This document shows positions 4,141 to 43,999 of a DNA stretch of 46,790 bases, piece by piece. The position numbers were made by a program, and so were the translations under genes. Each line of letters begins with the position of its first letter. The first letter of the stretch is position 1. The stretch is from Candidatus Guanabacterium sedimentis (GTDB taxonomy: Bacteria > Acidobacteriota > B3-B38 > Guanabaribacteriales > B3-B38): NCBI GenBank assembly GCA_902505605.1, contig CABWKN010000035.1:1-46790 (forward strand). Reading direction: 5' to 3'. Below the pieces are notes generated by a model, which worked only from the letters and a program-made list of their open reading frames with translations, was not told the origin of the DNA and did not search any database.

Positions 4141-4454
4141 AATGAACCTCCTCATTTTTTCTTACTCAAGGGATACATTTTTGTCTATTTTTGTCTAAAA
4201 GTCAACCATAATTTTAGTATCCATGACTTTATCATTTTTTGATAGGAATATAAAATCAGGCAAGAAATAAGAATCGGGAAAAAAAGGAGAGCAAATTATT
4301 TCAATCGTTTGAAAAGGCAACTAATTCATGGTCTACAAAGATTAAGCGTCATTTTTATTCAATGAATCCAGTTAATTAAGGTATACAGCGAAATCTTTGA
4401 ATTCAATAAAGTCTTCCGCAAAGTCAATATGAGCTCACATATCGATTTTTCCTT

Positions 4455-4482
4455 TTCACATTGCTTTATTCTATGCTAATAT
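4455..4482 (+). promoter_or_regulatory. Putative sigma70 promoter of the S9 peptidase gene
   Basis: TTCACA-N16-TAATAT with TG extension (TGCTAATAT); AAGGAGG SD downstream. Confidence 0.4.
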
Positions 4483-4522
4483 TGATGTATGTTTAACATT
4501 AAATAATTTTAAGGAGGTCATC

Positions 4523-6523
4523 ATGAGAAAAAGTCGGATTTTTGTCTTTTTATTGGGTATTGTAGTTCTGTTTTTGGGGGCTTATTTACAAGGGGACGAG
4601 CTTCAAAATCGCCTCACAGTGGACCTTTATCTTGACTGGGAATATGTGAGCAGCCCGCAGATTTCTCCCGATGGAACTCAAATAGTGTATGTGCGGAGAA
4701 TAACGGATAAGATAAACGATAAATTTGAAAGCCACATCTGGATTATAAATTTCGATGGCTCCAGGAATCGACAGCTTATCAAAGGCTCATCGCCGCTCTG
4801 GTCGCCGGATGGGAAAAGGTTAGCTTACATCTCCTCAGTTGACAACCGCTCTCAAATCTTCGTCCGCTGGATGGATACGGGAGAAGCCACTCAGATAACC
4901 CATTTAGACCAGAGCCCCAGCAACTTAGCATGGTCGCCAGACGGGGAAAAAATAGCCTTTACCATGCTGGTTCCCTCATCTCCCCAGTCCTGGATCAAAA
5001 TGCCTCCCAGGCCAAAGGGAGCCAAATGGGCTGACCCAGCTATGGTCGTTGACCGCCTTAGCTACCGTTACGATGGTCGCGGGAATAGACCGTTGGGATT
5101 CCGTCACATTTTTACAGTACCTGCTACGGGTGGAACTCCTCGACAGTTAACAAGCGGTGATTACGACCATGGAGCACCGCAGTGGAGCTTGGATGGGCAG
5201 ACTATTATCTTCAGTGCCACCCGAAAGCCCGAAGCTGAGTATCTGCCCGGAGGCTCGGAGGTTTATGCTCTCCTTCTGAAAGACGGACAGATTCGCGCTC
5301 TGACCGACCGCGATGGACCCGACTCTAACCCTCAAGTTTCTCCTGATGGACGATTCATTGCCTATACTGGCTACGACCAGAAGAATTATAGCTACCATGT
5401 CAGCAAGCTCTATGTCATGGATTTTGATGGTCAAAACAAGCGCCTTCTCTCGGAGAAGCTGGACCGCTCAATCAGAGGCGTTATTTGGGCACCGGACAGC
5501 AGCGGAGTCTATTTCGCGGTAGGCGACAAGGGAACCTCCAACATTCATTTCGCGCCCGTAAGCGGAGGTATCAGGCAAATTACCCAGGGAACTCATATGC
5601 TTAGCTCTCTTTCCCTCGCTTCAAACAATCGGGCTGTGGGCATGCTCTCCGCACCCTGGGAGCCTGGCGACCTGGTAACCTTTTCTCTTAACCAGCCTAC
5701 TCCTAAAAAGATTACCGCAGTGAATGATGACCTATTAGAAGGGATTAAACTGGGCGAGGTGGAGGAGATCTGGTACAAATCCTTTGATGACAAACCTATT
5801 CAGGGATGGATTATCAAACCCCCTGATTTCGACTCTGAGAAAAAGTATCCTCTGATTCTTTACATCCACGGCGGTCCTCACGCTATGTACAATGTCGCTT
5901 TTGATTTTGAATTCCAGAATCACGCAGCCCACGATTATGTTGTCCTCTATACCAATCCCAGGGGGAGCACCGGCTACGGTGAGGAATTTGGCAATGCCAT
6001 ATGGTACAGCTATCCCGGCGATGATTACCATGACCTGATGAAGGGAGTAGATGCCGTCCTTCAAAAGGGCTACATTGATGAAGAGAATCTCTTTGTCTGT
6101 GGGGGCAGCGGCGGCGGCGTGCTTACCTCATGGATTGTCGGTCACACAGACCGCTTCACAGCAGCGGTGGTGATGAAGCCGGTCACCAACTGGTACAGCT
6201 TTGTGGGCACCACCGACGGAGCCCACTGGTACCGCAGATTCAGGGAGATGCCCTGGGAAAATCCACAGGAGTATCTTGACCGTTCACCTATTGCTTATTC
6301 GGGGAATGTCACCACACCCACCATGGTGTTAACCGGGGAGTTAGACCTGCGCTGTCCTATGGAGCAGACTGAGCAGTATTACAGAGCCCTTAAGATTCAG
6401 AAGAAAGAGACCGTTATGATACGCATACCCGGAGAATACCACGGAATCGGTCGGAGGAATCCTACTCATAAGATTGCTCAGATACTCTACCTCAGGGAGT
6501 GGTTTGAAAAATATAAAAAATAA
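4523..6523 (+). CDS. Secreted S9 (prolyl oligopeptidase/acylaminoacyl peptidase) family peptidase
   Basis: Signal peptide; repeated WSPDG beta-propeller blades; IHGGPH, GGSGGG (Ser), DLRCP (Asp), GEYHG (His). Confidence 0.95.
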   Translation: MRKSRIFVFLLGIVVLFLGAYLQGDELQNRLTVDLYLDWEYVSSPQISPDGTQIVYVRRITDKINDKFESHIWIINFDGSRNRQLIKGSSPLWSPDGKRLAYISSVDNRSQIFVRWMDTGEATQITHLDQSPSNLAWSPDGEKIAFTMLVPSSPQSWIKMPPRPKGAKWADPAMVVDRLSYRYDGRGNRPLGFRHIFTVPATGGTPRQLTSGDYDHGAPQWSLDGQTIIFSATRKPEAEYLPGGSEVYALLLKDGQIRALTDRDGPDSNPQVSPDGRFIAYTGYDQKNYSYHVSKLYVMDFDGQNKRLLSEKLDRSIRGVIWAPDSSGVYFAVGDKGTSNIHFAPVSGGIRQITQGTHMLSSLSLASNNRAVGMLSAPWEPGDLVTFSLNQPTPKKITAVNDDLLEGIKLGEVEEIWYKSFDDKPIQGWIIKPPDFDSEKKYPLILYIHGGPHAMYNVAFDFEFQNHAAHDYVVLYTNPRGSTGYGEEFGNAIWYSYPGDDYHDLMKGVDAVLQKGYIDEENLFVCGGSGGGVLTSWIVGHTDRFTAAVVMKPVTNWYSFVGTTDGAHWYRRFREMPWENPQEYLDRSPIAYSGNVTTPTMVLTGELDLRCPMEQTEQYYRALKIQKKETVMIRIPGEYHGIGRRNPTHKIAQILYLREWFEKYKK

Positions 6524-6663
6524 CAAAAGAGAGAGTTTAAGGGCGCGCCTTACCTGTTAACAGCCTGACTATAAGGCGTTGAGGAGTGAGCTGCAACGAA
6601 AAAGGTTGGCTCTTTTATATCTCAAAAAAAGTTACCAGCTAAATTCCAAAAAAGGAGCTGCTT

Positions 6664-8130
6664 ATGAAAAAGGCAGTGGTTATATTTTGTTCCTTTTTGC
6701 TTGCCACATTGAGTATAACAACAGCCATTTGTAAATCCGTCGTTAAGTCAGACAATGATTCACTATCAGAAAAAGTAGACTTATTATTCGCTAAATGGGA
6801 TAAACCAGATTCGCCCGGTGCTGCATTGGCTATTATTAGAGATGGAAAGGTTGTTTTTCAGAGCGAATATGGTATGGCAAATCTGGAATATAATATTCCA
6901 ATCACATCTTCTACTGTTTTTCATATTGGTTCGGTTTCTAAGCAATTTGTGGGATTCTCAATCTTATTACTGGAGGATGAGGGGAAATTATCGTTAGATG
7001 ATGATATTCATAGATACTTACCCGAAGTACCCGACTTTGGAGAAACTATTAGAATCCGCCATTTAATTCACCATCTAAGCGGTTTGCGGGAACAAGAAAC
7101 CTTGTTTCAGTTATCTGGGATTTCAAATGCTGATGTAATCAAAACAGAGCATATTCTTAAATTGGTTCGCCGTCAAAAGAAACTCAATTTCCGGCCAGGT
7201 GATGAGATCGAATATTGTAACACTGGCTATGTTTTGTTGGCGCAAATTGTGGAAAGAGTTACAGAAAAATCATTTCGAGAATGGACAGCAGAGAATATTT
7301 TTAAACCACTGCATATGAACAATACTCAATTTTATGATGATCATACAAGAATTGTTAAGAACAGAGCTTATCCTTATTGGGTGCCTGAAGGCACGGAATT
7401 AAGAAAAGGAACTCTCAATTATTCATATGTGGGTTCTACAAGTTTATTCACTACTTCAGACGACATGGTAAAGTGGCTTATTAACTTTGTGAATCCCAAG
7501 GTTGGAAATCAAAAAATAATGAGAAAAATGCAGTTTGAATCCGGTTCTCTCAATAGCGGTGAAGATTGTACATACGGATTTGGCATAGGAGTTACAAAAT
7601 ATAAAGGATTAAAAGTCATTTTGCATAGTGGACATGATGCTGGTTATAGAGCATATGATGCCTACTTTCCTGAGCAAAAATTCGGGATAGTAATTCTAAG
7701 TAATTTTTACTCAATAAATCCTTCGCTTTTGGGACAAAAGATAGCAGATATTTACCTTACAAATCAATTTTCACCTCCCGTGCCTGTTCAAGATGAAGGT
7801 TTTAAGGCAAATACAAGTTCGCCAGAAACAAAAAGAGAGATATTACTTACAGAGAAGCAATTAATGGAATATGTCGGGAAATACTACAGTGAAGAATTGG
7901 ATACTCATTATCTGATTCTTTGTATTAATGGCAAATTATTTGTGAAACATTGGCGAAATGAAGATGTTATATTGACACCTGAGGATAAAGATCTGTTCTC
8001 CGGGAATCAATGGTGGTTCAAGAAGATAGTAGTTACTCGATTTAGCAATAATAAAGTTAATGGATTCAAATTAACTTCTAGTAGAGTGAGAAATCTGCTA
8101 TTTGAGAAAATCCAGAATAGATTAAAATAG
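6664..8130 (+). CDS. Secreted serine hydrolase, beta-lactamase class C / D-aminopeptidase-like family
   Basis: SxxK (SVSK), YxN (YCN), HSG motifs; LIHHLSGL; signal peptide; AAGGAG SD. Confidence 0.9.
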   Translation: MKKAVVIFCSFLLATLSITTAICKSVVKSDNDSLSEKVDLLFAKWDKPDSPGAALAIIRDGKVVFQSEYGMANLEYNIPITSSTVFHIGSVSKQFVGFSILLLEDEGKLSLDDDIHRYLPEVPDFGETIRIRHLIHHLSGLREQETLFQLSGISNADVIKTEHILKLVRRQKKLNFRPGDEIEYCNTGYVLLAQIVERVTEKSFREWTAENIFKPLHMNNTQFYDDHTRIVKNRAYPYWVPEGTELRKGTLNYSYVGSTSLFTTSDDMVKWLINFVNPKVGNQKIMRKMQFESGSLNSGEDCTYGFGIGVTKYKGLKVILHSGHDAGYRAYDAYFPEQKFGIVILSNFYSINPSLLGQKIADIYLTNQFSPPVPVQDEGFKANTSSPETKREILLTEKQLMEYVGKYYSEELDTHYLILCINGKLFVKHWRNEDVILTPEDKDLFSGNQWWFKKIVVTRFSNNKVNGFKLTSSRVRNLLFEKIQNRLK

Positions 8131-8148
8131 CTGCATAAAAGTTCATTA

Positions 8149-8170
8149 TTTTCTTGAGCCTGCAAGAAAA
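8149..8170. terminator. Inverted repeat between convergent genes, possible terminator
   Basis: TTTTCTTG-N6-CAAGAAAA. Confidence 0.3.
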
Positions 8171-8333
8171 GCGCCTGGTCAAAATTTTTTAATATTTTGC
8201 AAATTCCAAATTCGATGAACAGCTTTTTATAGGTGTAGCCTCTACATATTAGCGAACATCTATAATTGCTGCACCGTAGGGACAAAATCTACTTAATTGA
8301 AAGAGTTAAAACTCAAAACAACATCACTATGAC

Positions 8334-10436
8334 TCACTGGAATTTTAGCAGACCTATTTTCTGCAGGTCTTCGGCAAAGTGAAGGATGAACTCTATATGC
8401 GTCTCATTGAATTCGCAGGATACAATGTGTCTGATGTCCAGGAGGCTAAGCGTGCCGTCCATGAGATTCACGATTTCATAAGTCTTGGAATCGTAGGCAC
8501 CTCCAACCTTCTCTCTGTTCTTCGAATACCACAGGTAATCTTCTTCACCAAGTTTCTCCTGCAAGTAGTTCCAGGGAAGAGGACCCTGGAAAAGCCTCTG
8601 GGGCTTAAGGGATGAAGCCTTTTTATATAATTCTGTAGGCTGGAATTGCTCTTTGTTCACATTGTATTGACGGCTTAAGAGGTCATAAAACAGCTTTATT
8701 TTTTCCTTCTCGCTGGCAACCTGACGGTTTAAATCATTAGCTAACTCGTCAATAATCTTTTTGCTCGCTTCTCTTTCACAGAGCTCCATCACTTCCCTCA
8801 GGTTTGCCGACTCAATGCCAGCCTGAACCTGAGGATAGTTGCCGATATTAAAGTAAAGCTCAGCTAAGTACTTGCTCTTTTCTGCGTCGTTGGTGTATTG
8901 ATGAAGGAGGCGTATAGATTTTTGGCTTCTCTTTGCCATTCTCATTCTTGCCTGGCTGTAAACCTCCCGAGCAATATTTATAGCATCCTCATCGTCAGCA
9001 TTGGCTAATAGGAGGGCGGCTGCCAGTGATAGGCTGATTATCCTCTTCATCTCGGTAGGGTCGCACTTATCGGGAGTGTCCAGGCTGCTATGATGAAAGA
9101 CATCGCCGTGACCCAGCATGGGCGTGGGAATGGAAAAAGCGGAGTCGTTGAACATGATGTGGTCCGAGCCACCACTGTAAGGGTTGATGCGGAAATTCAA
9201 GCGGTATCTGCTTCCCCGGGGAGAATAGAATGCGCTTCCATCCAGCCAACCCAGCAGGTTGATGAAAACATCGTTGATATAGCCAGGGACCGAATAGGGA
9301 GCGCAAGTCAGGTTGAAATTCGCCTGGCACAGGGCATAATCCTCGCCAATCATATCCAGATTCATGCCGGCAATGCCTTTATCCCTGAGGTCTTGATGCT
9401 CAGTAAGATAGGCTACTGCTCCATGTATTTCGGGAAGCCAGAGAAAGCGAAGGGTTCTTCTGGGAGGCGGAATCTCTCCCCTGTTGACCAGAGCTAAGAT
9501 ATTTCTCACCATCTCTACCATACCGGCTGAACCCGAGGCGTTGTCGTTGGCTCCGGGCTTATAATGGTCGAGGTGACCCATGATGATAATCTCCTGGGAG
9601 GGATGTTCGCTTCCGATTATCTTAGCTTCGAGCACCGGCATCTCGCCGTCAAAAAGCTCAGCGTCCACCCTGGCTCGCATGGTTACCTTTCTCCCTGCTT
9701 TAAAAAGAGAAACAAGCTCCTTTTCCTGTCTGCGGGAGAGGGCGAAGCCAAAGCCCGCCTTTTCCCTTTCCTCTCCGGTGGGTGAGAGGCGGTTGACCTC
9801 TATTAAATCGGAATACTGAAGACGGTCTTCTCTATCCGAAGGTCCGACAATGACACCTGAAGCTCCTCTGTTTAAGACAGCCTGACGATGGACCGCAGAG
9901 CCTCCGCCGCCGGTGGCGAAAACGAGCTTTCCTTTGACATCCTTATCTTTGTAATCAGAATCTGATTTCCCTCCGCCTACATAGATAACCTCGCTTTCTA
10001 CTTCACCACCCTGAGAGTAAGGCATCAGGCTCACCGCCTGGTCGGAATAGCGTGCGATGAGCTTTGTATAGGGCTCCACAAGCCATAATTCGGCTTCCTT
10101 GACTCGCCAACCAACGAGGGAGTCCCACAGGAAATATTTTTTGAAGCCATCTGCTCTGTATCTTTTGATGGCGACCTCTTTAAGACCGATTTTTTTCAAC
10201 TCATTGGCCAGATATTCCACGCAGCGGTTGTAATCAGAGCCCTCTCCCCCGCCCCGTATACGGTGAAAGCGGGATATCTTGGAAATCATATCCCAGGCTC
10301 GCTCCCCTGAAACCTCGTTTTGAATAGCTTCTAACAGCTTTTTATTAAGGAGATAGGGGTTGTCCTGAGGATAGATAATCAGAGAGCCAGAAAAAAAGAA
10401 GATGATTGTGAACAACAAAAGAGCTTTCTTGACCAT
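8334..10436 (-). CDS. Secreted M28-family aminopeptidase with PA domain (DUF4910-like)
   Basis: Signal peptide; PA insert (DYKDKDVKGKLV); HLDH, GANDNASG, NLDMIG, GGSDH, HHSSLDT. Confidence 0.88.
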   Translation of the reverse strand: MVKKALLLFTIIFFFSGSLIIYPQDNPYLLNKKLLEAIQNEVSGERAWDMISKISRFHRIRGGGEGSDYNRCVEYLANELKKIGLKEVAIKRYRADGFKKYFLWDSLVGWRVKEAELWLVEPYTKLIARYSDQAVSLMPYSQGGEVESEVIYVGGGKSDSDYKDKDVKGKLVFATGGGGSAVHRQAVLNRGASGVIVGPSDREDRLQYSDLIEVNRLSPTGEEREKAGFGFALSRRQEKELVSLFKAGRKVTMRARVDAELFDGEMPVLEAKIIGSEHPSQEIIIMGHLDHYKPGANDNASGSAGMVEMVRNILALVNRGEIPPPRRTLRFLWLPEIHGAVAYLTEHQDLRDKGIAGMNLDMIGEDYALCQANFNLTCAPYSVPGYINDVFINLLGWLDGSAFYSPRGSRYRLNFRINPYSGGSDHIMFNDSAFSIPTPMLGHGDVFHHSSLDTPDKCDPTEMKRIISLSLAAALLLANADDEDAINIAREVYSQARMRMAKRSQKSIRLLHQYTNDAEKSKYLAELYFNIGNYPQVQAGIESANLREVMELCEREASKKIIDELANDLNRQVASEKEKIKLFYDLLSRQYNVNKEQFQPTELYKKASSLKPQRLFQGPLPWNYLQEKLGEEDYLWYSKNREKVGGAYDSKTYEIVNLMDGTLSLLDIRHIVSCEFNETHIEFILHFAEDLQKIGLLKFQ

Positions 10437-17033: not shown

Positions 17034-18254
17034 TTACTCTAATTCAAAGAAGCTGAGCTGTTCCTCCTCATCAGATTTCAGCGGTATTATTTTATAGTCC
17101 TCTTCTGTTCGTTGATAACTCTTGATTTTCTCCACCAGCTCTGGGCTCCAGTTTCCCTCTTCAACCGCCTTGGCTAAAGCAGAAGTGCTGAGGTCGGAGA
17201 CCTCCATCCACTTACCCTCCTGCTTCAGCAAATCCTCCAGAGCTTTTCTCTCCTGTGCCATGTCTTTGCCAGGGAATTTTGCCCTCTGGTAAATTTTCAC
17301 CCGGAGTTTATTATTCTTTCCTCTGATTATCTCAATCCCCTCCCGCCTGGCGTAGGCGATGATAGCCTCTTTCAGCTTTTCCAGCTCAGCTTTAATCCTC
17401 CTCTTCTCAGCCACCAGTTCGGTGTAGAGGTTAACAAGCTGGTAGCCCTCTTCAGCGGAATACTTATCGGCGGGGAGGGCAATGAGATGGGCGAGGTGCT
17501 TCATCAAGGGGCAGAGGTCGGGGTAATGACACCAGTAGCACAATGGGCTCTCCACAGGGGGGAAGTCATCTAAAGCTTCAATCCTGCGGATCTGCTCCAA
17601 TGTTTGATCTTTGAGCTTGGCAAGCTGAGCGGGTGAGCGGGTGGAACGAAGCTCCCGGTCGAATGCCAGGTAATGCCACACCAGGGCGAAATGGCGGGCA
17701 TCCGGTAGCATCTCTGTCAGGGCGAGCTGGTAAAGACCGAGTTGCTGGTCGGAATCAACCTCCTGCTGGTGAGGAAGCTTGGAGGAGGTTTTGTAATCAT
17801 GAATCTCGTAGATACCTTCTGAGGTCTGCGCCAGGCGGTCGATGTAGCCAATGAATTGATAGTCACCGGTCTCATCCAGGCAAAATCTTAATTCCTTCTC
17901 CAATCCAATAGTTAAAGAATCCTCAAACGGGGAATGGCGCTCATAATAGTTCTTGATGCACCTTCTACCCATCTCCTTGTAATGTTCTACCGTGTATTCC
18001 TTTTTGACAATGCGTACCAGAGGATGCCATTTTCGGCTCCATTGCTCTTCGTAAAACTCAATTAAGTCGGACAAGGAGTTCCGCTTGGTAAACATAAGGT
18101 CTTTGTAAAGCTTGCGCAAAGTATCATGAACCTGGCTCCCCATAAAAGCCTCAATGTTCTCCGTCTCCCTTTTAATTCTATCAATATAGTGGAGTTTGTA
18201 TTGCAGAGGGCAGTTATCAAAGGTGGACAATTTTGAATAGGAGTAAACAGGCAT
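17034..18254 (-). CDS. PD-(D/E)XK nuclease, RecB/AddB/Cas4-like, with C-terminal extension
   Basis: YSYSKLSTFDNCP, GYIDRL, HDYKT, QLGLY, CYWCHYPDLC; start moved to ATG 18254 behind GGGAGG. Confidence 0.88.
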   Translation of the reverse strand: MPVYSYSKLSTFDNCPLQYKLHYIDRIKRETENIEAFMGSQVHDTLRKLYKDLMFTKRNSLSDLIEFYEEQWSRKWHPLVRIVKKEYTVEHYKEMGRRCIKNYYERHSPFEDSLTIGLEKELRFCLDETGDYQFIGYIDRLAQTSEGIYEIHDYKTSSKLPHQQEVDSDQQLGLYQLALTEMLPDARHFALVWHYLAFDRELRSTRSPAQLAKLKDQTLEQIRRIEALDDFPPVESPLCYWCHYPDLCPLMKHLAHLIALPADKYSAEEGYQLVNLYTELVAEKRRIKAELEKLKEAIIAYARREGIEIIRGKNNKLRVKIYQRAKFPGKDMAQERKALEDLLKQEGKWMEVSDLSTSALAKAVEEGNWSPELVEKIKSYQRTEEDYKIIPLKSDEEEQLSFFELE

Positions 18255-18397
18255 AAGGAGAACCTCCCTTTTCGTCATTATATTAGCATACAACCATAGC
18301 CATTGCAAAAATTTTTACCCCCGACAATTTCTTCCTTCTAAAAAGCATCCCTTAATGGTATACTCATAAACGATTTTGTTGAGAGGAGGTAAGGGGT

Positions 18398-19795
18398 ATG
18401 GAGGCACAAGAGATAAAGAAGGCATCTTTAACGTTTCATGGTGGGCTGGGAGGAGCAGTGTTTCCGTTCCTTATTGTAGTAGGGGGAGCTATCTACCTGG
18501 GGGTTGCCCGGGTTCCCGACATCTATGGCTACTGGCCGACCGTTGCTTTCGCTCTAGTGGCGGGGATGCTCTTGGCTAAGAACCGATATCGCTATACCGA
18601 AGTCCTCATCGAGGGGATGTCTCAGCCGATAGTCATGATAATGGTGGGCGCCTGGCTCTTCGCCTCTGTGATTGGCAATCTTATGTATGAGACCGGGCTG
18701 GTGGAGGCTCTCATCTGGATATGCTTAAAGATAGGGCTTACAGGAGGGCTTTTCACAGGAGCCACCTTCATTATAGCATGCCTGGTAGGCACCTCCACCG
18801 GAACCAGTGTGGGCACCATCATAACCTGCACCCCCATATTATACCCGGCAGGCTACCTGCTGGGAGCTCATCCAGTGGCTCTTATGGGGGCCATCCTCGG
18901 TGGAGGAGCTTTTGGGGACAACCTCTCACCCATCTCCGATACCACCATCGCCTCCGCTTTCACCCAGCGGACCGATATAGGAGGAGTGGTCAAAAGCAGG
19001 CTGAAATACGCCTTTCCTGCCGGAGGTATCGCTCTCATCTTCTATATACTATTCGGAAAAGGCAGCACTGCCATCCAGGAGGTAGATGCCATTGCTCAAA
19101 CTGCCAGCCCCCGGGGATTGCCCATGCTTCTGGTGCCTGTGTTAATTGTCATCCTTTGCCTTAAGGGACGCCATCTGCTGGAAGCCCTTTTCTGGGGAAT
19201 GCTTATCGGCTGCCTGACCGGATTACTCTTCAAACTGATAACCTTCAAAGACCTCTTCCGCCTGGAGAGAGCGTCGGGAAATGCCCAGGGGATAATTCTC
19301 GAAGGGATGAAAGGAGGGGTGGGTATATCTATTTTTACCATTCTCCTCATCGGACTGGTATATTCCCTGCAGGCGGCAGGGGTAATAGGCAGACTCATCT
19401 CCTGGGCGGAGAGGGTAATCGTGTCTGCCCGACAGGCTGAGTTTATAATGATGCTAAGCACATTCTTCACCAACCTCATTATGATCCAGAATACAGTCAC
19501 CATAGTCTCTGTGGGAGAGTTTGCCCGCCAGACAGGCGAACGGTTCCAGATTCACCCCAATCGCCGGGCTAACATATTGGATGTCGCCGCCAATGTCTTC
19601 CAGCATATTGTCCCCTATATGGTGACCGTGCTCATCGCCTCGGCATACAGCCAATATGGAGAGAAATATGGAGCGGCGAAGCTGACCCCTATCGCCATCG
19701 GGCTCCATAACTACCATAGCTGGATGCTCCTGGCGGTGCTGACCTTTGCCGTATTAAGTGGCTACGGACAAAGGTTTTTAAAGGACGACCGTTAA
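18398..19795 (+). CDS. Na+/H+ antiporter NhaC-family transporter (possibly amino-acid transporting)
   Basis: Polytopic membrane protein; GTSVGT and FGDNLSPISDTTI signatures. Confidence 0.88.
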   Translation: MEAQEIKKASLTFHGGLGGAVFPFLIVVGGAIYLGVARVPDIYGYWPTVAFALVAGMLLAKNRYRYTEVLIEGMSQPIVMIMVGAWLFASVIGNLMYETGLVEALIWICLKIGLTGGLFTGATFIIACLVGTSTGTSVGTIITCTPILYPAGYLLGAHPVALMGAILGGGAFGDNLSPISDTTIASAFTQRTDIGGVVKSRLKYAFPAGGIALIFYILFGKGSTAIQEVDAIAQTASPRGLPMLLVPVLIVILCLKGRHLLEALFWGMLIGCLTGLLFKLITFKDLFRLERASGNAQGIILEGMKGGVGISIFTILLIGLVYSLQAAGVIGRLISWAERVIVSARQAEFIMMLSTFFTNLIMIQNTVTIVSVGEFARQTGERFQIHPNRRANILDVAANVFQHIVPYMVTVLIASAYSQYGEKYGAAKLTPIAIGLHNYHSWMLLAVLTFAVLSGYGQRFLKDDR

Positions 19796-19836
19796 AGGAA
19801 AGATAAACTCTGTCTTCCAGGTTAGAGAATTTCTTA

Positions 19837-19866
19837 TTGACATCAGAGGAATTACTATATTAATAT
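19837..19866 (+). promoter_or_regulatory. Putative sigma70 promoter of the Tat-peptide/tldD/tldE operon
   Basis: Consensus TTGACA (19837-19842), 18-nt spacer, TAATAT (19861-19866). Confidence 0.55.
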
Positions 19867-19907
19867 GAAAAAAATATTGGGCACCTCAGAAAAGGAGGTG
19901 GGTAACA

Positions 19908-20195
19908 TTGGAAATCAGCCGACGAAGATTTCTCCAGGTAGGCGGGCTCTCAGCTTTAGCTATGGGGATGGCTTCATACCTCACAGAGACAAGACCTTCC
20001 ACTAACCGCGTAGCCTCAGAGGAAAAGGGAGAGGATAGCTCTAATCAGCTCCTGTGGAACCATGGAAGCCCTTATATCGGCTGTTCAACCACTTATTTCA
20101 ACAAACTGAATCCGACTGCTGAAGAGCAGTGGCTGGAGCTGGTTCACTTCCATATGTACCCCAAATGCAGGGATAGGTTTTTATTCCATCTATGA
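19908..20195 (+). CDS. 95-aa protein with twin-arginine (Tat) signal, function unknown
   Basis: SRRRFLQ followed by a Gly/Ala h-region; strong SD AAAGGAGGTG 7 nt before TTG; promoter upstream; fills the gap before tldD. Confidence 0.8.
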   Translation: MEISRRRFLQVGGLSALAMGMASYLTETRPSTNRVASEEKGEDSSNQLLWNHGSPYIGCSTTYFNKLNPTAEEQWLELVHFHMYPKCRDRFLFHL

Positions 20196-20244
20196 TAAAA
20201 GACTCATTTAATTAAAAGGACTAATACCGCCAAGGAGGAGGATA

Positions 20245-21690
20245 TTGAAGGAATTTACCGATTTAGCACTGGACACTGCCAGCCGTAAAGGGGCCTCCTA
20301 TGCTGATATTCGCATCTGCTTTTACAAGGATCAGTATATCAGCACCAGGGACCAGATTGTTACCGGAGTAAGGGATTATGAAAATTCCGGGTTCGGTGTG
20401 CGTGCCTTTTACAATGGTGCCTGGGGTTTTGCCAGCAGCTCTGTTATCTCCAGGGAAGAGGTTCAGGCAGTAGCCGCCCTGGCAGTGGACATCGCCCGAG
20501 CCAGCGCCATGACCATTAAGGTTCCTTTAGAGCTTGCTCCAGAGCCAAAATATGTAGACCACTGGCAAACCCCCTTCATCAAAGACCCCTTCAAGATACC
20601 CAACGAGAAGAAGATAAATCTGCTGCTGAATATTAACAAAATAATGAGTAATGTAAAAGGAATCAAGAGGACCACCTCCTATACATCCTTCACCAGCGAA
20701 CAAAAATACTTCGCCAGCACCATAGGCTCCTTTATCGAGCAGCTCATAATGAGGTCTTCGGCTGGTTACACCGCCGTAGCGGTGGGCAAGGAGGGATTTG
20801 AAAGCCGCAGCTTCCAGGATTTCCCGCTCAATAAGGGCTACGAGCACATTGAAGAACTCCCCTTAATAGAAAATGCCCAGCAGGTGGCGGAAGAGGCAGT
20901 GCAGCACCTCACCGCCAAGGAGTGCCTGGAAGGGGTAAAAGACCTTATCCTATCCCCTTCCCACATCTGCCTGACCATCCACGAGTCGGTGGGGCATGCC
21001 ACCGAGCTCGACCGGGTGCTGGGGTGGGAAGCCGATTATGCCGGCACCAGCTTTGCCACTACCGATAAACTGGGAAAACTGAAATATGGCTCCCCGTTGG
21101 TCAATTTCACCGGCGACCGAACCCTTCCTCACGGTCGCTCCACCTGCGGTTACGATGATGATGGGGTCAAGACCAAAAAATGGGACCTTATCAAGGAGGG
21201 GATTTTAGTCGGCTACTCCACCACCCGTGATACCGCTCCTTATATTGGAGCCAAAGAGAGCAACGGCTGTAGCTATGCCGACAACTGGGGTAGCATTCCC
21301 ATCTTGAGAATGCCCAATGTCTGCCTTGCGCCTGGTGGACAGGGAGCTCCCACTCCCGAAGAGCTCATTGCCGATACCAAAGACGGAATTTACATTGACG
21401 GGATGGGGAGTTTCAGCATCGACCACCAGCGCCGCAACTTCCAGTTCGGTGGGGACGCCTTCTGGGAGATTAAAGACGGAAAGAAGACTCAGATGCTCAA
21501 AAATGTTACCTATCAATCGACCACTCCCGAGTTCTGGGGCTCGGTGGATGCTGTCTGCAGTGAGGAAGATTGGAAACCATGGAGTATTGCCGACTGCGGA
21601 AAAGGTCAGCCCGGTCAGCGGGCACAGATGACCCACGGAAGCGCCACCATTCGAGCAAGAAGAATAAAAGTAGGAGGGGCGAGATTATGA
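20245..21690 (+). CDS. tldD: TldD metalloprotease (catalytic subunit)
   Basis: GASYADIR, NGAWGFAS, HESVGH (HExxxH), YDDDG, RMPN, CGKGQP; AAGGAGGAGG SD. Confidence 0.92.
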   Translation: MKEFTDLALDTASRKGASYADIRICFYKDQYISTRDQIVTGVRDYENSGFGVRAFYNGAWGFASSSVISREEVQAVAALAVDIARASAMTIKVPLELAPEPKYVDHWQTPFIKDPFKIPNEKKINLLLNINKIMSNVKGIKRTTSYTSFTSEQKYFASTIGSFIEQLIMRSSAGYTAVAVGKEGFESRSFQDFPLNKGYEHIEELPLIENAQQVAEEAVQHLTAKECLEGVKDLILSPSHICLTIHESVGHATELDRVLGWEADYAGTSFATTDKLGKLKYGSPLVNFTGDRTLPHGRSTCGYDDDGVKTKKWDLIKEGILVGYSTTRDTAPYIGAKESNGCSYADNWGSIPILRMPNVCLAPGGQGAPTPEELIADTKDGIYIDGMGSFSIDHQRRNFQFGGDAFWEIKDGKKTQMLKNVTYQSTTPEFWGSVDAVCSEEDWKPWSIADCGKGQPGQRAQMTHGSATIRARRIKVGGARL

Positions 21691-23003
21691 TTCTTACAGA
21701 AACCGAAGCGAAGGCAATTCTGGAGAAGGTTATCAGCTATTCCACCGCCGACGAGACGGTAGCTTATCTCACCGGGGGAAGCGGAGCCTTATCTCGCTTT
21801 GCCAATAATGCCATGACCCATAATATAGACAAGCGAGGCTTCTCGTTAAGTGTGACTGTGGCCTTCGGACAGAAGGAGGGTTCCTCAACAATTAATAAGT
21901 TTGATGATGAGTCCCTCAAACAGGTAGTCAAAAGGGCGGAGTCCATAGCCAGGCTCCTTCCAGATAATCCCGAACATATGCCCCCCCTACCCCCTCAGAA
22001 GTACCGAAAAATAGAATCCTACTTCCCGGAGACAGCGGAGTTTGGTCCTATGGACCGGGCAAAGGAGATTCTTAAAGTCATCCAGACCTGCGACCAAAAA
22101 GAGCTCATAACCGCCGGAACCTTCTCCAATGGTGATGGATTTAATAGTATCGCTAACTCCGAAGGATTGTTTGGCTATCATAAATCTACCAACTGTGGCT
22201 TCAGCGTCAGCGTGAGAACCCAGGACCGCACCGGTTCGGGCAGAGCGGAGCAGTCAAATGAAAGGAGAATAGGGGAGCTAAACCCCTCCCAATTAGCCGC
22301 CGAGGCGATAAGAACAGCCGAGATGTCCCGCAACCCCCACCCGCAGGAACCGGGGGATTATACGGTAATCCTAAAACCTACAGCTATGATGGAGTTCTTT
22401 ATTTATCTCCTTTTCGGACTCAGTGCCCGTGAAGCAGACGAGGGGAGGAGCTTCCTGTCCGACCGCAAAACCGGCGGCAATAAGCTGGGGCAAAAGGTGT
22501 TCGGGGAAAACATCACCATCCGCAGCGCAGCTGCTCACCCAAAGCTCTTGGGTACCCCTTTTGGAGGGGATGGGCTTCCCGCCAAAGATATCACCTGGGT
22601 AGAGAAAGGGGTGGTTAAAAATCTCATCTACAGCAGGTATTGGGCAGCCCAGAAAGGGAAAGAGCCTACCTTTGCCATGAATTTTCTGATAGAAGGTGGT
22701 GACCATATCATAGACGAGCTGATAAAGGATACCGAAAAAGGGATATTGGTAAGCAGCTTCTGGTATATCCGCATGGTGGACCCCAACAACCTGTTGTGCA
22801 CCGGGCTTACCAGGGATGGGACCTTCTGGGTAGAAAACGGTAAGATTCAATACCCTATTAACAACTTCCGATTCAACGAATCACCGGTGGTGCTCCTCAA
22901 CAACATAGAGAAGATGACCAAACCTCAGAAGGTTGGCTTCGGCATCATGCCAGGGGTAAAAGCCCACAACTTTACTTTCTCCAGCGTATCGGAGGCAGTA
23001 TAA
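21687..23003 (+). CDS. tldE: TldE/PmbA family protein (non-catalytic partner)
   Basis: RFANN, GLTRDGTFWVENGKI, NFRFNESP; no HExxxH; ATGA overlap with the tldD stop and AGGAGG SD. Confidence 0.88.
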   Translation: MILTETEAKAILEKVISYSTADETVAYLTGGSGALSRFANNAMTHNIDKRGFSLSVTVAFGQKEGSSTINKFDDESLKQVVKRAESIARLLPDNPEHMPPLPPQKYRKIESYFPETAEFGPMDRAKEILKVIQTCDQKELITAGTFSNGDGFNSIANSEGLFGYHKSTNCGFSVSVRTQDRTGSGRAEQSNERRIGELNPSQLAAEAIRTAEMSRNPHPQEPGDYTVILKPTAMMEFFIYLLFGLSAREADEGRSFLSDRKTGGNKLGQKVFGENITIRSAAAHPKLLGTPFGGDGLPAKDITWVEKGVVKNLIYSRYWAAQKGKEPTFAMNFLIEGGDHIIDELIKDTEKGILVSSFWYIRMVDPNNLLCTGLTRDGTFWVENGKIQYPINNFRFNESPVVLLNNIEKMTKPQKVGFGIMPGVKAHNFTFSSVSEAV

Positions 23004-23069
23004 TACAGAAAGGGGAGGATTAATTCTGCAACAAACTTTTCTGAAACCAGATAATTATAATATTAAGGA

Positions 23070-23450
23070 GTGAGGGATATGCTACAGAAAAGGATAATTT
23101 TAATGGGGGTGCTGGCGATATTTATAGCCGGTACTCTGTCTCTGCTATTCGGTCAGGGGGTTAAGGTCGGGAGTTTCACTCTTCCCAGAGATGTGGAATA
23201 CAGCGGAAAGACAATACCCCAAGGGGTATACCAGCTTTCTTTAGAGACCAAGGGTGAGGATACTTACATCTGCATCTGGAAAGATGAAGAGCAAATTTCC
23301 AAAGAGATGGCCATCATCCAGGAGGCTAAGAAGAACTATCCTGAACCTGTTATCACTGTTGATGTGATAACTCAGGATAAGGACCAGTTTGTCAGAATCA
23401 GCGTATTTATGGAACGGAAAGTATACAAAGCGTTCTATAAGTGCGTATAA
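23070..23450 (+). CDS. Hypothetical exported beta-rich protein
   Basis: Signal peptide; FTLPRDVEYSGKTIPQGVYQLSL; the start may be ATG 23079. Confidence 0.7.
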   Translation: MRDMLQKRIILMGVLAIFIAGTLSLLFGQGVKVGSFTLPRDVEYSGKTIPQGVYQLSLETKGEDTYICIWKDEEQISKEMAIIQEAKKNYPEPVITVDVITQDKDQFVRISVFMERKVYKAFYKCV

Positions 23451-23561
23451 GTCTGGAGAGGCTGTCCGCCATATCTTGCCCGCTAAAAAGAGGGTAAATT
23501 GGGGTGAGGTGAGTTTCTGCCGACAGAGGGATGTCCTTCCCTGTCATCATAATATAAGCAG

Positions 23562-23909
23562 ATGGAAGCCAATATAAGATACCAGGAAAATGTGGTCATT
23601 GTGGATCTGAAAGGAAAGCTGGTCTGGGGGAGGGAAAGATTGGTTTTAAAGGAGACTATCACCCAGTTGCTGGAAGCGGATAAAAAAAATATTCTGCTCA
23701 ACCTCTCCGAAGTAAAATATATGGACAGCAGTGGTATCGGGGAGCTGGTATCAAGCTATCGAGCGGTGAAACAGGCTGGTGGGCGGCTAAAAATTGTTCA
23801 TTTGAGCAACAGAATCTATACCACACTGACAATTATGAGGTTATTGCCGATTTTTGAGGTCTTCTCGGATGAGAAAGAAGCGGTAATGAGCTTCGCCACT
23901 GAAGCGTAA
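23562..23909 (+). CDS. STAS-domain anti-sigma-factor antagonist
   Basis: LLNLSEVKYMDSSGIGELV with the phospho-acceptor Ser. Confidence 0.92.
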   Translation: MEANIRYQENVVIVDLKGKLVWGRERLVLKETITQLLEADKKNILLNLSEVKYMDSSGIGELVSSYRAVKQAGGRLKIVHLSNRIYTTLTIMRLLPIFEVFSDEKEAVMSFATEA

Positions 23910-23935
23910 AAAGCAAACTCCCCTTTGACCCGCGG

Positions 23936-25498
23936 CTACATAGCCTCCAGAACCCTCTTGAACCCGCAGCGCTGACATACACCCTCCTCCCAGGTGCACC
24001 AATCTTGATATATCTGAAGAAGCCCCTGCTGTCTCTGGGCGCTGTTAACAACCCTTTTTAGTCGATTCTCATAAGCAAAAAGCCTGTGTTCCATAAACTT
24101 CAGCAGGCTGTTCGAAGGCAACTTAGGATACCAATGGTAGAAGCGAGCCAGGAGGTTTTCCAGCTGTTTATGCTCTTTTTTTCGCGCATATAAAATCAGG
24201 GCTGGAATGATAACATTCACTATAATGGTAGCTGCTCTCCCAGGACCGATTAACCGGATGCTCTTTTTCAACGTTTTCCCTGCAAAAGTGTAGTGCCAGC
24301 TCCAGTAATTCTCTTCCTCTACCGAGCTAAAAAGCTCTTTCAACTCTTTGTTTATCTTTTTAAAGTGGGATTCTTGTGCGGAAATCCCCGGGGTGCAACA
24401 TATCATCAGTAGCTTGTGAAGGGGGGTCAGGGGGAAGATTCGAATGAGGAAGTTACACATGCCAGCTAGCCGTCGAGCAGGGAAGTTAGCTGGTCGCATC
24501 CCTTTTTTCCATATATCCTGTGGTAGCACTTTATCCTGATATCGCCCTTTCAATCTCTCCCAGCTCTGCTCCAGCTCTCGTATATACTTGTCTTGGAAAA
24601 CCGCCTGCTTGAACGGAAGCTCCTGCTGGCTGGGTAATATGCCAGCCTTCCCGAAGAGGAGCGCTTGCAGAGTTATTCCCCAAATGGATGGTTTGGTTGA
24701 AGACAACACCTCCCTTATCTCTTTCAAGCGAAGCTGACGGGCAAGCAGCAAAAACTGCTCCTTGTTCCGCTTATAGCCCAGCGCCTCCATTATCCTTTCG
24801 TATATAACCTGATTGTAATCCTCCTGGGAGAGCTCTTTGGCGAAGCGGTTGGCTTTGCTGACTATCCGAGCATCCCCGGCTAAGTCTAAAAGCGCACCTA
24901 TTTTGCTTAATTCCTTGGCTTTAATGACCGAATAGCAGGGACCCTGGCTTGAAGGAGAAGCAAAGGGGTAAGCGGACGGGTTTATAGTATTAGACAGGGT
25001 TGTGAGTTTAGTATCTAAGGCATGATAAAGGGGAAGCTGGGGTATCTCCCTCCCCGCGGAATTGACTAGCTTCTTGTTTAACCCCAGATCGTCCCACATT
25101 ATTACATGAAGGATAACATTATCATAATTTTTATCCTGATGATGATTGTGGGCAAACCAGTCGGAGGCTAACACATGGATTTCAATATCTCCTCTCAATA
25201 CCTCTGCCGATGATATTTTTATCGCAGCCTGGATAAAATCAGGACCGGACTCCGAATTCCACTTCCCCGGAGAGAGAACCTCCACCTTTTCACCTGAGAT
25301 TGTTCTAAGCTTATCTATGCGGAGACGCTGGTCGAACCATATACTCTGCACCAACCTCTCTGCAATCCGCTTTTCCAGCCCATATTCAGAAAAAGCAACC
25401 CGCCCTTCTCTTGTTATCCAATAGGGGGAGAGCTTTCTGAGGTAATCTATAAGGAAGCCTTCGCTATCTTCCCATTTTTTTTCTTGCCCATTCATCAT
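23936..25498 (-). CDS. DUF2851 family protein
   Basis: PGKWNSESGPDF, GDIEIH, SDWFAHNHHQDKNYDNVILHV, LGYKRN, RPANFPARRLA, QQGLLQ, C-terminal Cys cluster; start uncertain. Confidence 0.85.
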   Translation of the reverse strand: MMNGQEKKWEDSEGFLIDYLRKLSPYWITREGRVAFSEYGLEKRIAERLVQSIWFDQRLRIDKLRTISGEKVEVLSPGKWNSESGPDFIQAAIKISSAEVLRGDIEIHVLASDWFAHNHHQDKNYDNVILHVIMWDDLGLNKKLVNSAGREIPQLPLYHALDTKLTTLSNTINPSAYPFASPSSQGPCYSVIKAKELSKIGALLDLAGDARIVSKANRFAKELSQEDYNQVIYERIMEALGYKRNKEQFLLLARQLRLKEIREVLSSTKPSIWGITLQALLFGKAGILPSQQELPFKQAVFQDKYIRELEQSWERLKGRYQDKVLPQDIWKKGMRPANFPARRLAGMCNFLIRIFPLTPLHKLLMICCTPGISAQESHFKKINKELKELFSSVEEENYWSWHYTFAGKTLKKSIRLIGPGRAATIIVNVIIPALILYARKKEHKQLENLLARFYHWYPKLPSNSLLKFMEHRLFAYENRLKRVVNSAQRQQGLLQIYQDWCTWEEGVCQRCGFKRVLEAM

Positions 25499-31158: not shown

Positions 31159-33549
31159 TCAGGAGGACACTCCCCTGCTATCTCTCACAGCAATGCGCCA
31201 CACCTCGTCTATGGTGTCCACAAATTGGAATTCAAGCTCCTTTTTGATTGCTTCGGGTATCTCCTTCAGGTCTTTTTCGTTCCTGGAGGGGAGGATAATG
31301 GTTCTAATGCCCGCCCGCTTAGCCGCCAGCACCTTCTCTTTGATCCCTCCCACTGGCAGAACCTTTCCTCGGAGGGTTATTTCCCCGCTCATGGCAACAT
31401 CTGGTCGCACGGGCTTATCCATCAACAGTGAAAAAAGGGAGGTGGCAATGGTAACCCCAGCGGAGGGACCGTCTTTGGGTATAGAGCCCGCAGGGATGTG
31501 GATGTGGAGGTCGTACTTATCAAAGAAGTCCTCAGCAATTCCCAGGCTATCAGCCCTGGAGCGTATGTAGCTGAGGGCAGCCTCGGCGGATTCCTTCATA
31601 ACATCACCCAACTGCCCGGTGAGCTTGAGGGATTTTTTCCCTCGCATCCTGGTAGATTCCACAAATACAATATCCCCTCCGCTTGGAGTCCAGGCGACTC
31701 CAACAGCTACCCCGGGGACATTGGTTCGCTCGGCTGTTTCCGAGAAGAACCTTATCGGTCCCAGAAAATCGGAAACATTATCGGCGGTAATCCGTACCTT
31801 ATCTACCTTGCCTATGGCTGCATTCTTGGCTATTTTGCGACAGATAGAAGCTATCTCCCGCTCCAGATTGCGGAGTCCTGCTTCGCGGGTGTAATCCCTT
31901 ATTATGGCAATAACAGCTTCATCGCCGAACTCTATATGGTTGCTCTTCAGCCCATGGGCTTCCAGTTGTCTGGGTATGAGGAACTGCCTGGCTATCATCA
32001 GCTTCTCCTCCTGTGTATAACCCGGCAGCTCTGAGACTTCCATTCTGTCCCTGAGGGCGGGGGGAATGGGGTCTAGCAAATTAGCGGTAGTGATAAACAG
32101 CACCTTGGATAGGTTAAAGGGTACCTCCAGATAGTGGTCGGAGAAGGAGAAGTTCTGCTCCGGGTCGAGCACTTCCAAAAGGGCAGCCGCAGGGTCTCCG
32201 CGAAAGTCAGCTCCCAGTTTGTCAATCTCATCGAGCATGAAGACTGGATTGGAGGACTCCGCCTTTCTTATCCACTGAATAATCCTCCCCGGTAGGGCGC
32301 CGATGTATGTTCTGCGATGACCCCGAACTTCCGCTTCGTCTCTTATCCCTCCCAGAGAGAGGCGGATAAACTTCCTTCCCATAGCCCGGGCGATAGAACG
32401 TCCCAGGGAGGTCTTTCCGGTACCAGGGGGTCCCACAAAGCAGAGGATGGGTCCTTTCACATCTGGCTTCAGCTTTCTGACCGCCAGATACTCCAGAATT
32501 CTCTCCTTAACCTTTTCCAGATTGTAATGGTCCTCGTCCAGGACCTTCTGGGCCTGCTCGATATTGAGATTGTCCTCGGTAAAGACCGACCAGGGAAGAG
32601 AGACCAGCCAATCGAGATAGGTTCGCGACACAGTATACTCAGCAGAAGCGGGTGTCATCTTTTCCAACCGGCTAAGCTCCTTGATAACTTCGCTCTCCAC
32701 CTCTGGGGGCATTTTCGCTTTCCTTATCTTCTTCTTGAACTCCTGAATCTCCATTGCTCGCTCATCTCCTACTCCAAGTTCCTTCTGGATAGCTTTTAGC
32801 TGCTGGCGGAGGAAAAACTCTCGCTGGGCTTGACTCACCTCGCTCTCGATCTGGGACTGGATGCGAGAGCCCATCTTGAGAATCTCCAGCTCTTTGCTGA
32901 GCAGGAGGGTCACCTTCTCCAGCCTTTCCTTCACCTCAGGGGTTTCCAGAACCACCTGCTTATCGGGGAGTTTGGATTCCAGATTGGATATCACAAAATC
33001 AGCCAGCCTACCCGGCTCTTTGATGTTAAGCACAGCAATCTTCGTTTCATCGGGGAGGCTGGGATTAAGTGAGATATAATTGGAGAACTGATTAACCACA
33101 TTCTTCATCAGGGCTTCTAACTCGTCAGAGACGATTAAAATATCGTAAAAGGGCTCTACCTCAGCTGTCATATAGGGCTCGATCTGAAGAAACTTCTTGA
33201 TTTTTATCCGCCTTAGCCCTTGAATAATTATCCTTTCCGTGTTGTCGGGAAATTTCAGCATCTTTAACACCACAGCAGCAGCACCCACCTGATAGAGGTC
33301 TTTGGGTTTCGGCTCTTCGATTTTGGGGTCTTTTTGAGCGACCACTCCCAGAAGCTTGTCCTTCACGAGGATATCGTCCAAGAGCTTGATCGAGCTTCGT
33401 CTGGAAATTATCAAGGGAAGAACAAGAAAAGGGTACACCACAACTTCCCTTAAAGGGAGTATGGGCAACACAGAGGGAATCTCTATCTGTTCGCCCTCCT
33501 TATCTCCATTTTTCATCTTTTCCAAGATGTCTTTCATTTCATCGCTCAT
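31159..33549 (-). CDS. lon: ATP-dependent protease Lon
   Basis: LPILPLR N-domain; GPPGTGKT; LDEIDK; PKDGPSAG (Ser); GGIKEK (Lys). Confidence 0.97.
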
Positions 33550-37400: not shown

Positions 37401-37415
37401 CTTATTTCTCCTTCC

Positions 37416-38630: not shown

Positions 38631-38696
38631 CGGTTATTCTCCAGCTTTTCGAAATTTAAGGTTAACAGCCCGGATTTTTCAATCCGAGCATTTCTG

Positions 38697-38996
38697 TTAG
38701 GCTACCTCCTCAGAGATAATTTCCAGCGATTTAGGCTTGGTGGGGCACACTTCTACGCAAATGCCGCAGACCTTGCAGTGATAATTATCTATCCCTATCA
38801 CTTTGCTATCCTCAACCTTGATGGAAGCGTCGGGACAGTTAATCCAACACAGAAGACAATGAGTGCAGGTATCCTCATTCCATACCAAACGGTTGGGGTT
38901 CCAATCCCCGGTCTGGGTTTCTGACGAATTTCCCATATCCAGTATGAGCCCACCTATCGGTAGCTCCTGCCATTTCTTAAGCTTCTCTTTTTTCAT
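38697..38996 (-). CDS. porD: 2-oxoacid:ferredoxin oxidoreductase delta subunit (2x[4Fe-4S])
   Basis: TGDW; CTHCLLCWINCP; CKVCGICVEVCP. Confidence 0.93.
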   Translation of the reverse strand: MKKEKLKKWQELPIGGLILDMGNSSETQTGDWNPNRLVWNEDTCTHCLLCWINCPDASIKVEDSKVIGIDNYHCKVCGICVEVCPTKPKSLEIISEEVA

Positions 38997-43938: not shown

Positions 43939-43999
43939 ATGAAGTGACCTAAAATTTCTCGCTCATACAGTTTTTTGTTAAACAGTATTCAGGGAAAAG

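Follow-up and report, generated by a model that had tools for sequence, protein, structure and literature searches.

A small twin-arginine signal protein encoded upstream of tldD and tldE in Acidobacteriota, a probable export escort for a signal-less protease

The locus

The two-subunit protease TldD/E is usually regarded as a cytoplasmic housekeeping enzyme that also matures microcins. In Candidatus Guanabacterium sedimentis (Acidobacteriota) the genes of the two subunits follow a small gene whose product opens with a putative twin-arginine translocation (Tat) signal, and neither subunit has a signal of its own. The three genes lie in a stretch of 46,790 nucleotides (GenBank assembly GCA_902505605.1, contig CABWKN010000035.1, positions 1 to 46,790), here called the window, which is contig C35 of a metagenome-assembled genome of 2.2 Mb that is 81% complete (G000; genomes, contigs and loci are numbered G, C and L below). 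We think that the small protein is probably a trans-acting Tat escort on which folded TldD/E hitch-hikes, and that the small gene most likely supplies the export signal that relatives carry fused to TldD.

The features of the locus are collected in Table 1. A preliminary description had listed a promoter, an open reading frame (ORF) of 95 codons with an SRRRF Tat motif and a strong Shine-Dalgarno (SD) sequence, a gap of 49 bp to a tldD in another frame and with an SD of its own, and an ATGA overlap of tldD with tldE. All of them were found again: the small gene stops at 20195 and tldD starts at 20245 in a different frame, and at 21687-21690 the TGA of tldD and the ATG of tldE are shared. In a consensus scan the proposed promoter was the top sigma-70-like site within 18000-24200 with a score of 10/12; promoter-like sites in that interval numbered n = 10, against 6.0 +/- 2.4 in shuffled sequence. 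Both hexamers are kept at L014, where the small protein is 66-67% identical and the spacer and flanks have diverged, and at L010 the -10 hexamer reads TACTAT. The SD of the small gene, AAGGAGGT, is unchanged in 3/3 genomes of the same genus.

Table 1. Features at the tldD-tldE locus of the window
Feature	Coordinates	Strand	Basis or remark
Putative sigma-70-like promoter, TTGACA-N18-TAATAT	19837..19866	+	consensus match and conservation only
Shine-Dalgarno sequence of the small gene, AAGGAGGT	19892..19899	+	read from sequence; ends 8 nt before the start
Small Tat-signal protein gene, 95 aa (95 codons), TTG start	19908..20195	+	ORF
Shine-Dalgarno sequence of tldD, AAGGAGGAGGA	20232..20242	+	read from sequence
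tldD, 481 aa, TTG start, catalytic subunit, without signal peptide	20245..21690	+	PF01523, PF19290, PF19289
tldE/pmbA-like partner, 438 aa, without signal peptide	21687..23003	+	three PmbA_TldD Pfam domains
ORF of 126 aa with N-terminal hydrophobic segment	23070..23450	+	66 bp after tldE; no Pfam family

The small gene and its product

The small protein begins with MEISRRRFLQVGGLSALA (MEISRRRFLQ), which places the Tat motif SRRRFLQ at residues 4-10, and it can be divided into a signal of SRRRF and a hydrophobic h-region (residues 1-30), a variable linker (31-46) and a conserved C-terminal domain (47-95). Over 12 residues the Kyte-Doolittle hydropathy of the h-region averages 1.58, and the protein passes the NCBIfam Tat-signal model TIGR01409 with 17.5 bits against a cut-off of 16.7 but not the Pfam model PF10518. 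Apart from the signal, no Pfam or NCBIfam family matched it, and no conserved AxA cleavage site was evident in the family.

Close homologues at 92, 84 and 66-74% identity retain both frame and stop. The ratio of nonsynonymous to synonymous substitutions (dN/dS), calculated by the Nei-Gojobori method for four close homologues, is 0.04-0.23 for the signal, 0.55-3.8 for the linker (one near-identical pair being undefined) and 0.07-0.23 for the C-terminal domain, with 0.08 for tldD in the same comparison. Since the ORF is conserved with a dN/dS well below 1, it is beyond chance; it is a real gene, with purifying selection on the signal and the 49 C-terminal residues and a linker left free. Such a pattern of selection would fit a signal, a spacer and a docking module. 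The AlphaFold2 (AF2) monomer has a helix at residues 5-26, disorder at 29-43 and helices at 71-82 and 85-92, with a mean pLDDT of 70, a pTM of 0.42 and means of 77-89 over blocks of 10 residues in the C-terminal domain, and Foldseek gave nothing for it in the PDB at E <= 0.001.

The 12 aligned members of the family are 86-117 amino acids long and their identity to the window protein goes down to 18-24%. RR-x-F is present in 12/12, and the only invariant residues are R5, R6, F8, G53, P55 and R88. The cysteines C59 and C87, which together with histidines had suggested a metal-ligating inhibitor, do stand at those positions in the window protein; they vary across the alignment, as does H82. That idea is weakened by this, and we rejected a metal-binding role of C59, C87 and the histidines, as the residues are not conserved.

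The start codon is TTG in the window and in G003, and CTG in both genomes of the same genus (G001 and G002) and at L014. In G001 and G002 no alternative in-frame start retains the RR motif, the next being a GTG at codon 11 that removes it, and L014 has an alternative GTG start three codons upstream.

The leader can be described here as well. The 110 bp upstream of the small gene (window 19796-19907) are near-invariant in the genus and more conserved than the codons of the linker, and the -35 region with an AT-rich flank is also kept at L014. An Rfam search of 19600-20400 gave no match, and hence no evidence for an RNA element in this conserved leader. At 19865 a further ORF (46 aa) runs in a different frame across the small gene's SD and start codon; with nothing in its favour, it was treated as spurious.

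Spread of the family and linkage to tldD

When the whole protein library (1.84 billion representatives) was searched with a profile, three true representative clusters at 50% identity were found; a further match, P0006, is a spurious eukaryotic repeat protein. Those members that have a public name are all called "hypothetical protein" and come from Thermoanaerobaculia, Polarisedimenticolia or Acidobacteriota. Among 401 sampled genomes of the phylum 10 gave full-length profile matches, and no further full-length copies were found by the profile in that sample; in the window's own class 4/5 genomes gave such matches, and in the class of G340 5/301, the latter all in one family. The more distant members were located only by inspecting the DNA upstream of signal-less tldD genes in other Acidobacteriota families. 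In G373, G340, G014, G223, G215 and G116 such ORFs of 87-117 amino acids have the RR-x-F signal and share the motifs G-x-P-(Y/F/H) and (H)-(F/Y)-R-M-P...R-(D/E)-R-x-(V/L)-L-G-(L/I).

Full-length relatives occur in 13 genomes (G000-G003, G014, G116, G215, G223, G340, G373, G494, G602 and G650) of at least five Acidobacteriota families, and 13/13 lie directly upstream of a signal-less tldD. This is the linkage that the preliminary description had set as a check beforehand. It holds for the three genomes outside the profile (G494, G602 and G650, 3/3), and the small gene was likewise adjacent to tldD at 3/3 genome-contig loci and 4/4 metagenome loci. Outside the genus of the window the small gene and tldD are -7 to +16 bp apart, with frequent stop/start overlap, and the small-gene copies each carry their own SD and are translationally coupled to tldD. 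The gene upstream of the small gene differs, being an NhaC-type transporter in the window and an aminotransferase in G003, and the conserved unit is therefore small gene-tldD-tldE.

Whether the ORF of 126 codons that follows tldE belongs to this unit is uncertain. It is kept downstream of tldE at L010, L012 (partial) and L015 (67%) and is conserved in the genus, it was not found beside the operon of G003 (L011), and it is possibly co-transcribed with tldE.

Fused and split signals

In the sample of 401 genomes, 71 had a TldD match at E <= 1e-60. We classified 70 loci of the TldD subfamily, which are the 30 best of this search and 40 further matches of the same search, taken by their coordinates. 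At 42 loci (18 + 24) an RR-x-F signal is fused in frame to TldD, and the small gene is present at none of them; at 10 loci, here called split, TldD has no fused signal and all 10 have the small gene upstream; at 18 loci (2 + 16) there is neither fused signal nor small gene. L096, L099 and L101 were counted in the last class, as their RR flags are in non-coding upstream frames or lack an h-region. A fused and a separate signal are thus mutually exclusive at these loci, and the second check of the preliminary description, that Tat-fused TldDs should lack the small gene, came out at 0/42 with the gene.

The fused extensions are short, only 35-50 amino acids. Among 17 fused N-termini tested, 6 pass the cut-off of TIGR01409 and 6 more are just below it. 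The fused N-termini show neither a G-x-P-Y nor an HFRMP...RDR motif, and since the motifs of the escort C-terminus are missing there, we see no support for a split of one fused gene by simple fission. A likeness of the escort C-terminus RDRxxxGL to an SRFKGL before TldD in one fused clade was considered and set aside as too weak. A search for longer, fused forms of the small protein found none among 8000 candidates, which is weak evidence.

In a maximum-likelihood tree of 30 full-length TldDs the split and fused forms are interleaved. The split label requires 4 changes on the tree, at least 2 being forced by well-supported branches, and a single origin of the split form is seen in 0/200 bootstrap trees. 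The two arrangements have therefore replaced each other repeatedly. TldE is without signal at 11/11 fused loci where tldE follows tldD (seven fused loci had no tldE within the stretch examined) and at 10/10 split loci; RR flags at L036 and L037 were discounted, as they fall upstream of the TldE start in a frame overlapping tldD. In this protease family a signal-less partner must therefore already be travelling with a signal-bearing one.

Could the small protein instead be what TldD/E acts upon? E. coli TldD/E processes pro-microcin B17 and CcdA, and the preliminary description had likewise offered a dedicated substrate, that is a pro-peptide trimmed by TldD/E whose product is exported or acts outside. 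The E. coli precedent and the gene order, with the precursor first as in operons for ribosomally synthesized and post-translationally modified peptides (RiPPs), would agree with this, but trimming of the TldD/E type would remove an N-terminal Tat signal, and the C-terminal domain is conserved and free of the Cys/Ser/Thr-rich features of a core peptide. Annotation of the neighbours (a transporter, a PD-(D/E)XK nuclease, a STAS protein and DUF2851) agrees with the earlier remark that no YcaO or radical-SAM gene is adjacent: no tailoring gene or transporter of a RiPP pathway stands beside the small gene, and the features of a RiPP precursor are lacking. The variable Cys and His residues weaken this reading too. 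Nor would a substrate explain why the gene is absent from 42/42 loci where TldD has its own signal. Without positive support for it, we consider a substrate very unlikely.

Two observations on paralogues belong here. The genomes G000, G002 and G003 have a second TldD, 57-58% identical and without signal or escort (L067, G000:C22:6397-7569; L063, G002:C79:9689-11158; L062, G003:C43:19477-20940), which presumably is a cytoplasmic copy. One family of Acidobacteriota has pairs of TldD-like paralogues that both bear a fused Tat signal of their own and are separated by about 1.6-2.1 kb from end to start (L051/L068 in G097:C11, L050/L069 in G167:C43 and L047/L078 in G247:C4). No TldE-like gene was found directly downstream at these loci, and the pairs may be of a TldD/TldD type in place of TldD/TldE.

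The TldD and TldE proteins

All three domains of both subunits score above the gathering score; for PF01523, PF19290 and PF19289 the values are 49.6, 35.4 and 118 bits in TldD and 30.1, 39.0 and 141.6 bits in TldE. HExxxH (H246, E247 and H251) is invariant in an alignment of 48 TldDs, and among solved structures E. coli TldD (5NJ5, E 4.6e-20) comes closest. Neither protein has a hydrophobic N-terminus, and both start directly with the first helix, which bears out the earlier statement that the subunits are without signal peptides. The scores against the E. coli-type equivalogs NF008006 and NF008268 are far below the cut-offs (79.3 bits versus 513 for TldD, 55.4 versus 438 for TldE), as is that of TldD against the archaeal equivalog (148.5 bits versus 635), and by sequence the proteins form a separate subfamily within the Pfam family, distant from both. 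The TldDs of Planctomycetota, Poribacteria, WOR-3 and Schekmanbacteria, which are 53-57% identical, are signal-less.

If the small protein docks on TldD, the TldDs that go with it might have residues in common. We compared 8 non-redundant split with 18 fused TldDs, dropping L033 and L034 (near copies of L032) and the two rows with neither arrangement, and called a column split-specific when it was conserved in >= 85% of the split and <= 20% of the fused sequences. In TldD 4/536 columns are of this kind, namely Q108 (8/8 versus 0/18), E121, K138 and E429. Position 122, compared by residue class, is always basic in the split TldDs and mostly acidic in the fused ones; it lies within residues 108-138, as do three of the four columns. 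Shuffling of the labels reached four such columns in 2/1000 trials; true clades give 31-114, as shared ancestry predicts. In TldE the same test found no split-specific column. These columns fit a constraint on TldD that is present only together with the small protein, and residues 108-138 lend modest support to a candidate docking surface.

A likeness to hydrogenase small subunits

The small subunit of [NiFe]-hydrogenases of the HybO/HysB type is a classic hitch-hiker helper, with which the large subunit passes through Tat. There is a weak alignment of the window protein to about the first 80 residues of [NiFe(Se)]-hydrogenase small subunits, over the signal and the W-x-x-G-x-x-C-x-G-C-S region (window 19908-20165 versus L006 1501-2484). 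The model NF045520 gives E 6.1e-5 for the window protein and 0.011-0.081 for three relatives, hhalign against a true small subunit from G008 gives a probability of 85%, and the PDB chain 2wpn_A matches at E 0.088. Fragment clusters of PF01058 are also found among the language-model neighbours of the window protein. A comparison that leaves out the signal scores 18.4; shuffled sequences score 10.5 +/- 2.0, and 1/100 of them gets as high. Membership was rejected, with 22.5 bits versus 470 for NF045520 and 13.6 versus 179.5. The first cysteine of the cluster is a tyrosine or histidine in the family (the motif is Y-I-G-C in the window protein), and the GCS motif is lost in other branches. The likeness may be a trace of distant origin or a coincidence.

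With such a likeness, one could regard the small ORF as a functionless, decaying remnant, left over from the N-terminus of a hydrogenase small subunit or of a once-fused Tat-tldD. The missing first cysteine of the CxxC motif, the CTG start in the sister species and the fact that no hydrogenase small subunit was found in the 81%-complete genome of the window point the same way, but a decaying gene should hardly show purifying selection on the C-terminal domain, an intact frame with so narrow a range of length down to the most distant of the 12 members, or an SD on each copy together with translational coupling to tldD. This explanation is disfavoured, and we regard it as extremely improbable.

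A bolder version of the escort, which we find rather unlikely, would take the likeness at face value. The small protein would then be a minimal Tat adaptor, with a mature part of about 50-65 amino acids, exapted from the signal and the first strand-loop of a [NiFe]-hydrogenase small subunit. It would have been swapped repeatedly with the cis signal, so that a whole clade of TldD/E works outside the cytoplasm, and it might also cap the protease until export.

Discussion

The most rational explanation of the linkage, the exclusivity and the signal-less subunits is in our opinion an escort. TldD and TldE would reach their folded, paired state in the cytoplasm, the small protein would dock on TldD by its conserved C-terminal domain (about 49 residues), and the twin-arginine signal, by way of the free linker of about 16 residues, would carry the folded complex through TatABC and deliver it to the outer face of the cytoplasmic membrane, where the signal would afterwards be either cleaved or kept as an anchor. 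The genes and their arrangement are observed; binding, co-export, the fate of the signal and a function outside the membrane are what we infer. A TatC (PF00902, 238.6 bits) is encoded at G000:C24, and G002, G003 and G373 have tatC too; none turned up in G001, which is 79% complete. The first model of the preliminary description had been such an exporting escort. Its predictions on linkage and exclusion held, and the interpretation given in that description is, as a whole, partly supported.

The escort could do more than carry. In an extension of the explanation above, which we hold to be unlikely, it would be an escort-inhibitor of the Caddie type, which besides exporting TldD/E blocks the substrate channel of the protease for as long as the complex is still inside. 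MelC1, the small helper of the Streptomyces tyrosinase MelC2, is said to occupy the active site of the tyrosinase. MelC1 would be a precedent, the mature part of our small protein is a conserved compact domain and so more than a tag, and it would make sense to silence a non-specific peptidase in the cytoplasm. Against it, there are no conserved metal-ligand residues, and since TldDs with a fused signal lack the domain, this protease family need not be inhibited to be exported.

Several points weigh against the escort. Firstly, the missing signal of TldD does not predict the small gene, because 18/28 signal-less TldDs have no escort gene. Secondly, the Tat assignment is marginal and rests on the motif and on scores of hidden Markov models: PF10518 fails on the small protein (16.6 bits, cut-off 22.7), and with TIGR01409 5 of 11 other family members score 13.6-15.9, below the cut-off, and 6 are undetected. 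Thirdly, the start codons may imply a rare CTG initiation or weak translation, the latter because the start is TTG here and CTG in two sister species. Fourthly, the counts overstate independence, because the loci are phylogenetically related, and 10/13 split genomes were sources of the search profile or are very similar to it. Two genomes are unpublished, G151 (one fused row, L061) and G494 (split), and without both there are 41 fused and 12 split. Finally, the split-specific columns remain modest evidence because the groups were defined by the tested feature and the sequences are related.

The first of these points, by which a cytoplasmic TldD/E would be normal in the phylum, would suit an independent small protein, for instance a periplasmic or membrane-anchored one, that is merely co-transcribed with tldDE and does not bind its products, with TldD/E staying in the cytoplasm; the second, escort-less TldD in the same genomes would suit it as well. 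It would leave unexplained, however, that the linkage is strict over at least five families while the surrounding genes change, that the stop and start codons often overlap, that the small gene excludes fused signals with both forms interleaved on the tree, and that split TldDs conserve residues of their own. We consider an independent protein to be about as unlikely as the escort-inhibitor.

Judged by sequence, a large subfamily of Acidobacteriota TldD/E appears to be targeted to the Tat pathway, with the signal fused or on a separate small protein. If the escort is real, a new and very small helper family joins the few known dedicated hitch-hiker proteins, and the alternation would offer a natural comparison of cis and trans signals, in which the handling of multi-subunit cargo by Tat could be studied. 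It would also suggest that TldD/E acts outside the cytoplasm, plausibly in the breakdown of peptides by a sediment bacterium that ferments them. The docking module of 50 residues together with the Tat signal could then serve as an export tag for folded proteins.

The rest of the window is rich in genes for catabolism of peptides and amino acids (2896-10436, 31159-33549, 36462-39601 and 42601-46316). They encode M20, S9 (prolyl oligopeptidase-like), beta-lactamase/S12-like and M28 peptidases, Lon and an SNF-family transporter, and further an aldehyde:ferredoxin oxidoreductase with a ferredoxin and subunits of 2-oxoacid:ferredoxin oxidoreductase. A life by peptide fermentation would fit this gene content, and an exported TldD/E would be in keeping with it.

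Comparison with known systems

E. coli TldD/E is cytoplasmic and is not known to have a signal or an escort. The window proteins resemble E. coli TldD and TldE (PmbA) in that both subunits are of the same three-domain family, only TldD has HExxxH, and the two coupled genes stand next to each other; unlike the E. coli enzyme, the Acidobacteriota subfamily mostly carries a predicted Tat signal, in cis or in trans. A full-text search for TldD together with twin-arginine, Tat signal or periplasm found no relevant paper, and as most subscription journals were outside its scope, the idea may exist in print.

With the signal on a small helper and co-encoded TldD and TldE both signal-less, the locus has the layout of a hitch-hiker system. 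PaoABC is described as a ternary hitch-hiker complex (PMC4273604); in a Tat review from 2026 a search by term meets hitch-hiking only in a reference (PMC13673990). No homology to known helper families was detected in Pfam, NCBIfam, a PDB profile search or Foldseek.

The nearest parallel is the bicistronic melC1-melC2 operon of Streptomyces. According to the excerpted text, MelC1 carries the Tat signal for the signal-less tyrosinase MelC2, which is secreted by hitch-hiking on this helper, and paralogous operons whose MelC1-type helper lacks the Tat motif stay intracellular (PMC2758597). As far as these excerpts go, a small upstream helper with the Tat signal and a signal-less downstream enzyme are common to both systems, and the intracellular, Tat-less melC paralogues have a counterpart in the escort-less TldD paralogues. 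The differences are that there is no sequence relationship (the PDB chain 1wx2_B matches at E 0.19, in the signal region only), that MelC1 also loads copper, that the mature part here is smaller, about 50-65 amino acids, and that the cargo would be a heterodimeric protease and not an oxidase.

The gamma subunit of the FAD-dependent glucose dehydrogenase (FAD-GDH) of Burkholderia cepacia is, in the excerpted account, a dedicated hitch-hiker of 168 amino acids with a signal of 47 (PMC6719666). It too is a small subunit that mainly carries the Tat signal for a signal-less catalytic subunit; its mature part, as given there, is larger, with 121 amino acids and five helices, the cargo is a flavoenzyme, and we detected no homology. 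An alternation of the signal between cis and trans is not noted in the excerpts of that article. As small Tat-signal helpers of signal-less enzymes are already known from MelC1 and FAD-GDH gamma, the "new system" of the preliminary description was an overstatement; new here are the protein family and its proposed cargo, and the kind of mechanism is a known one.

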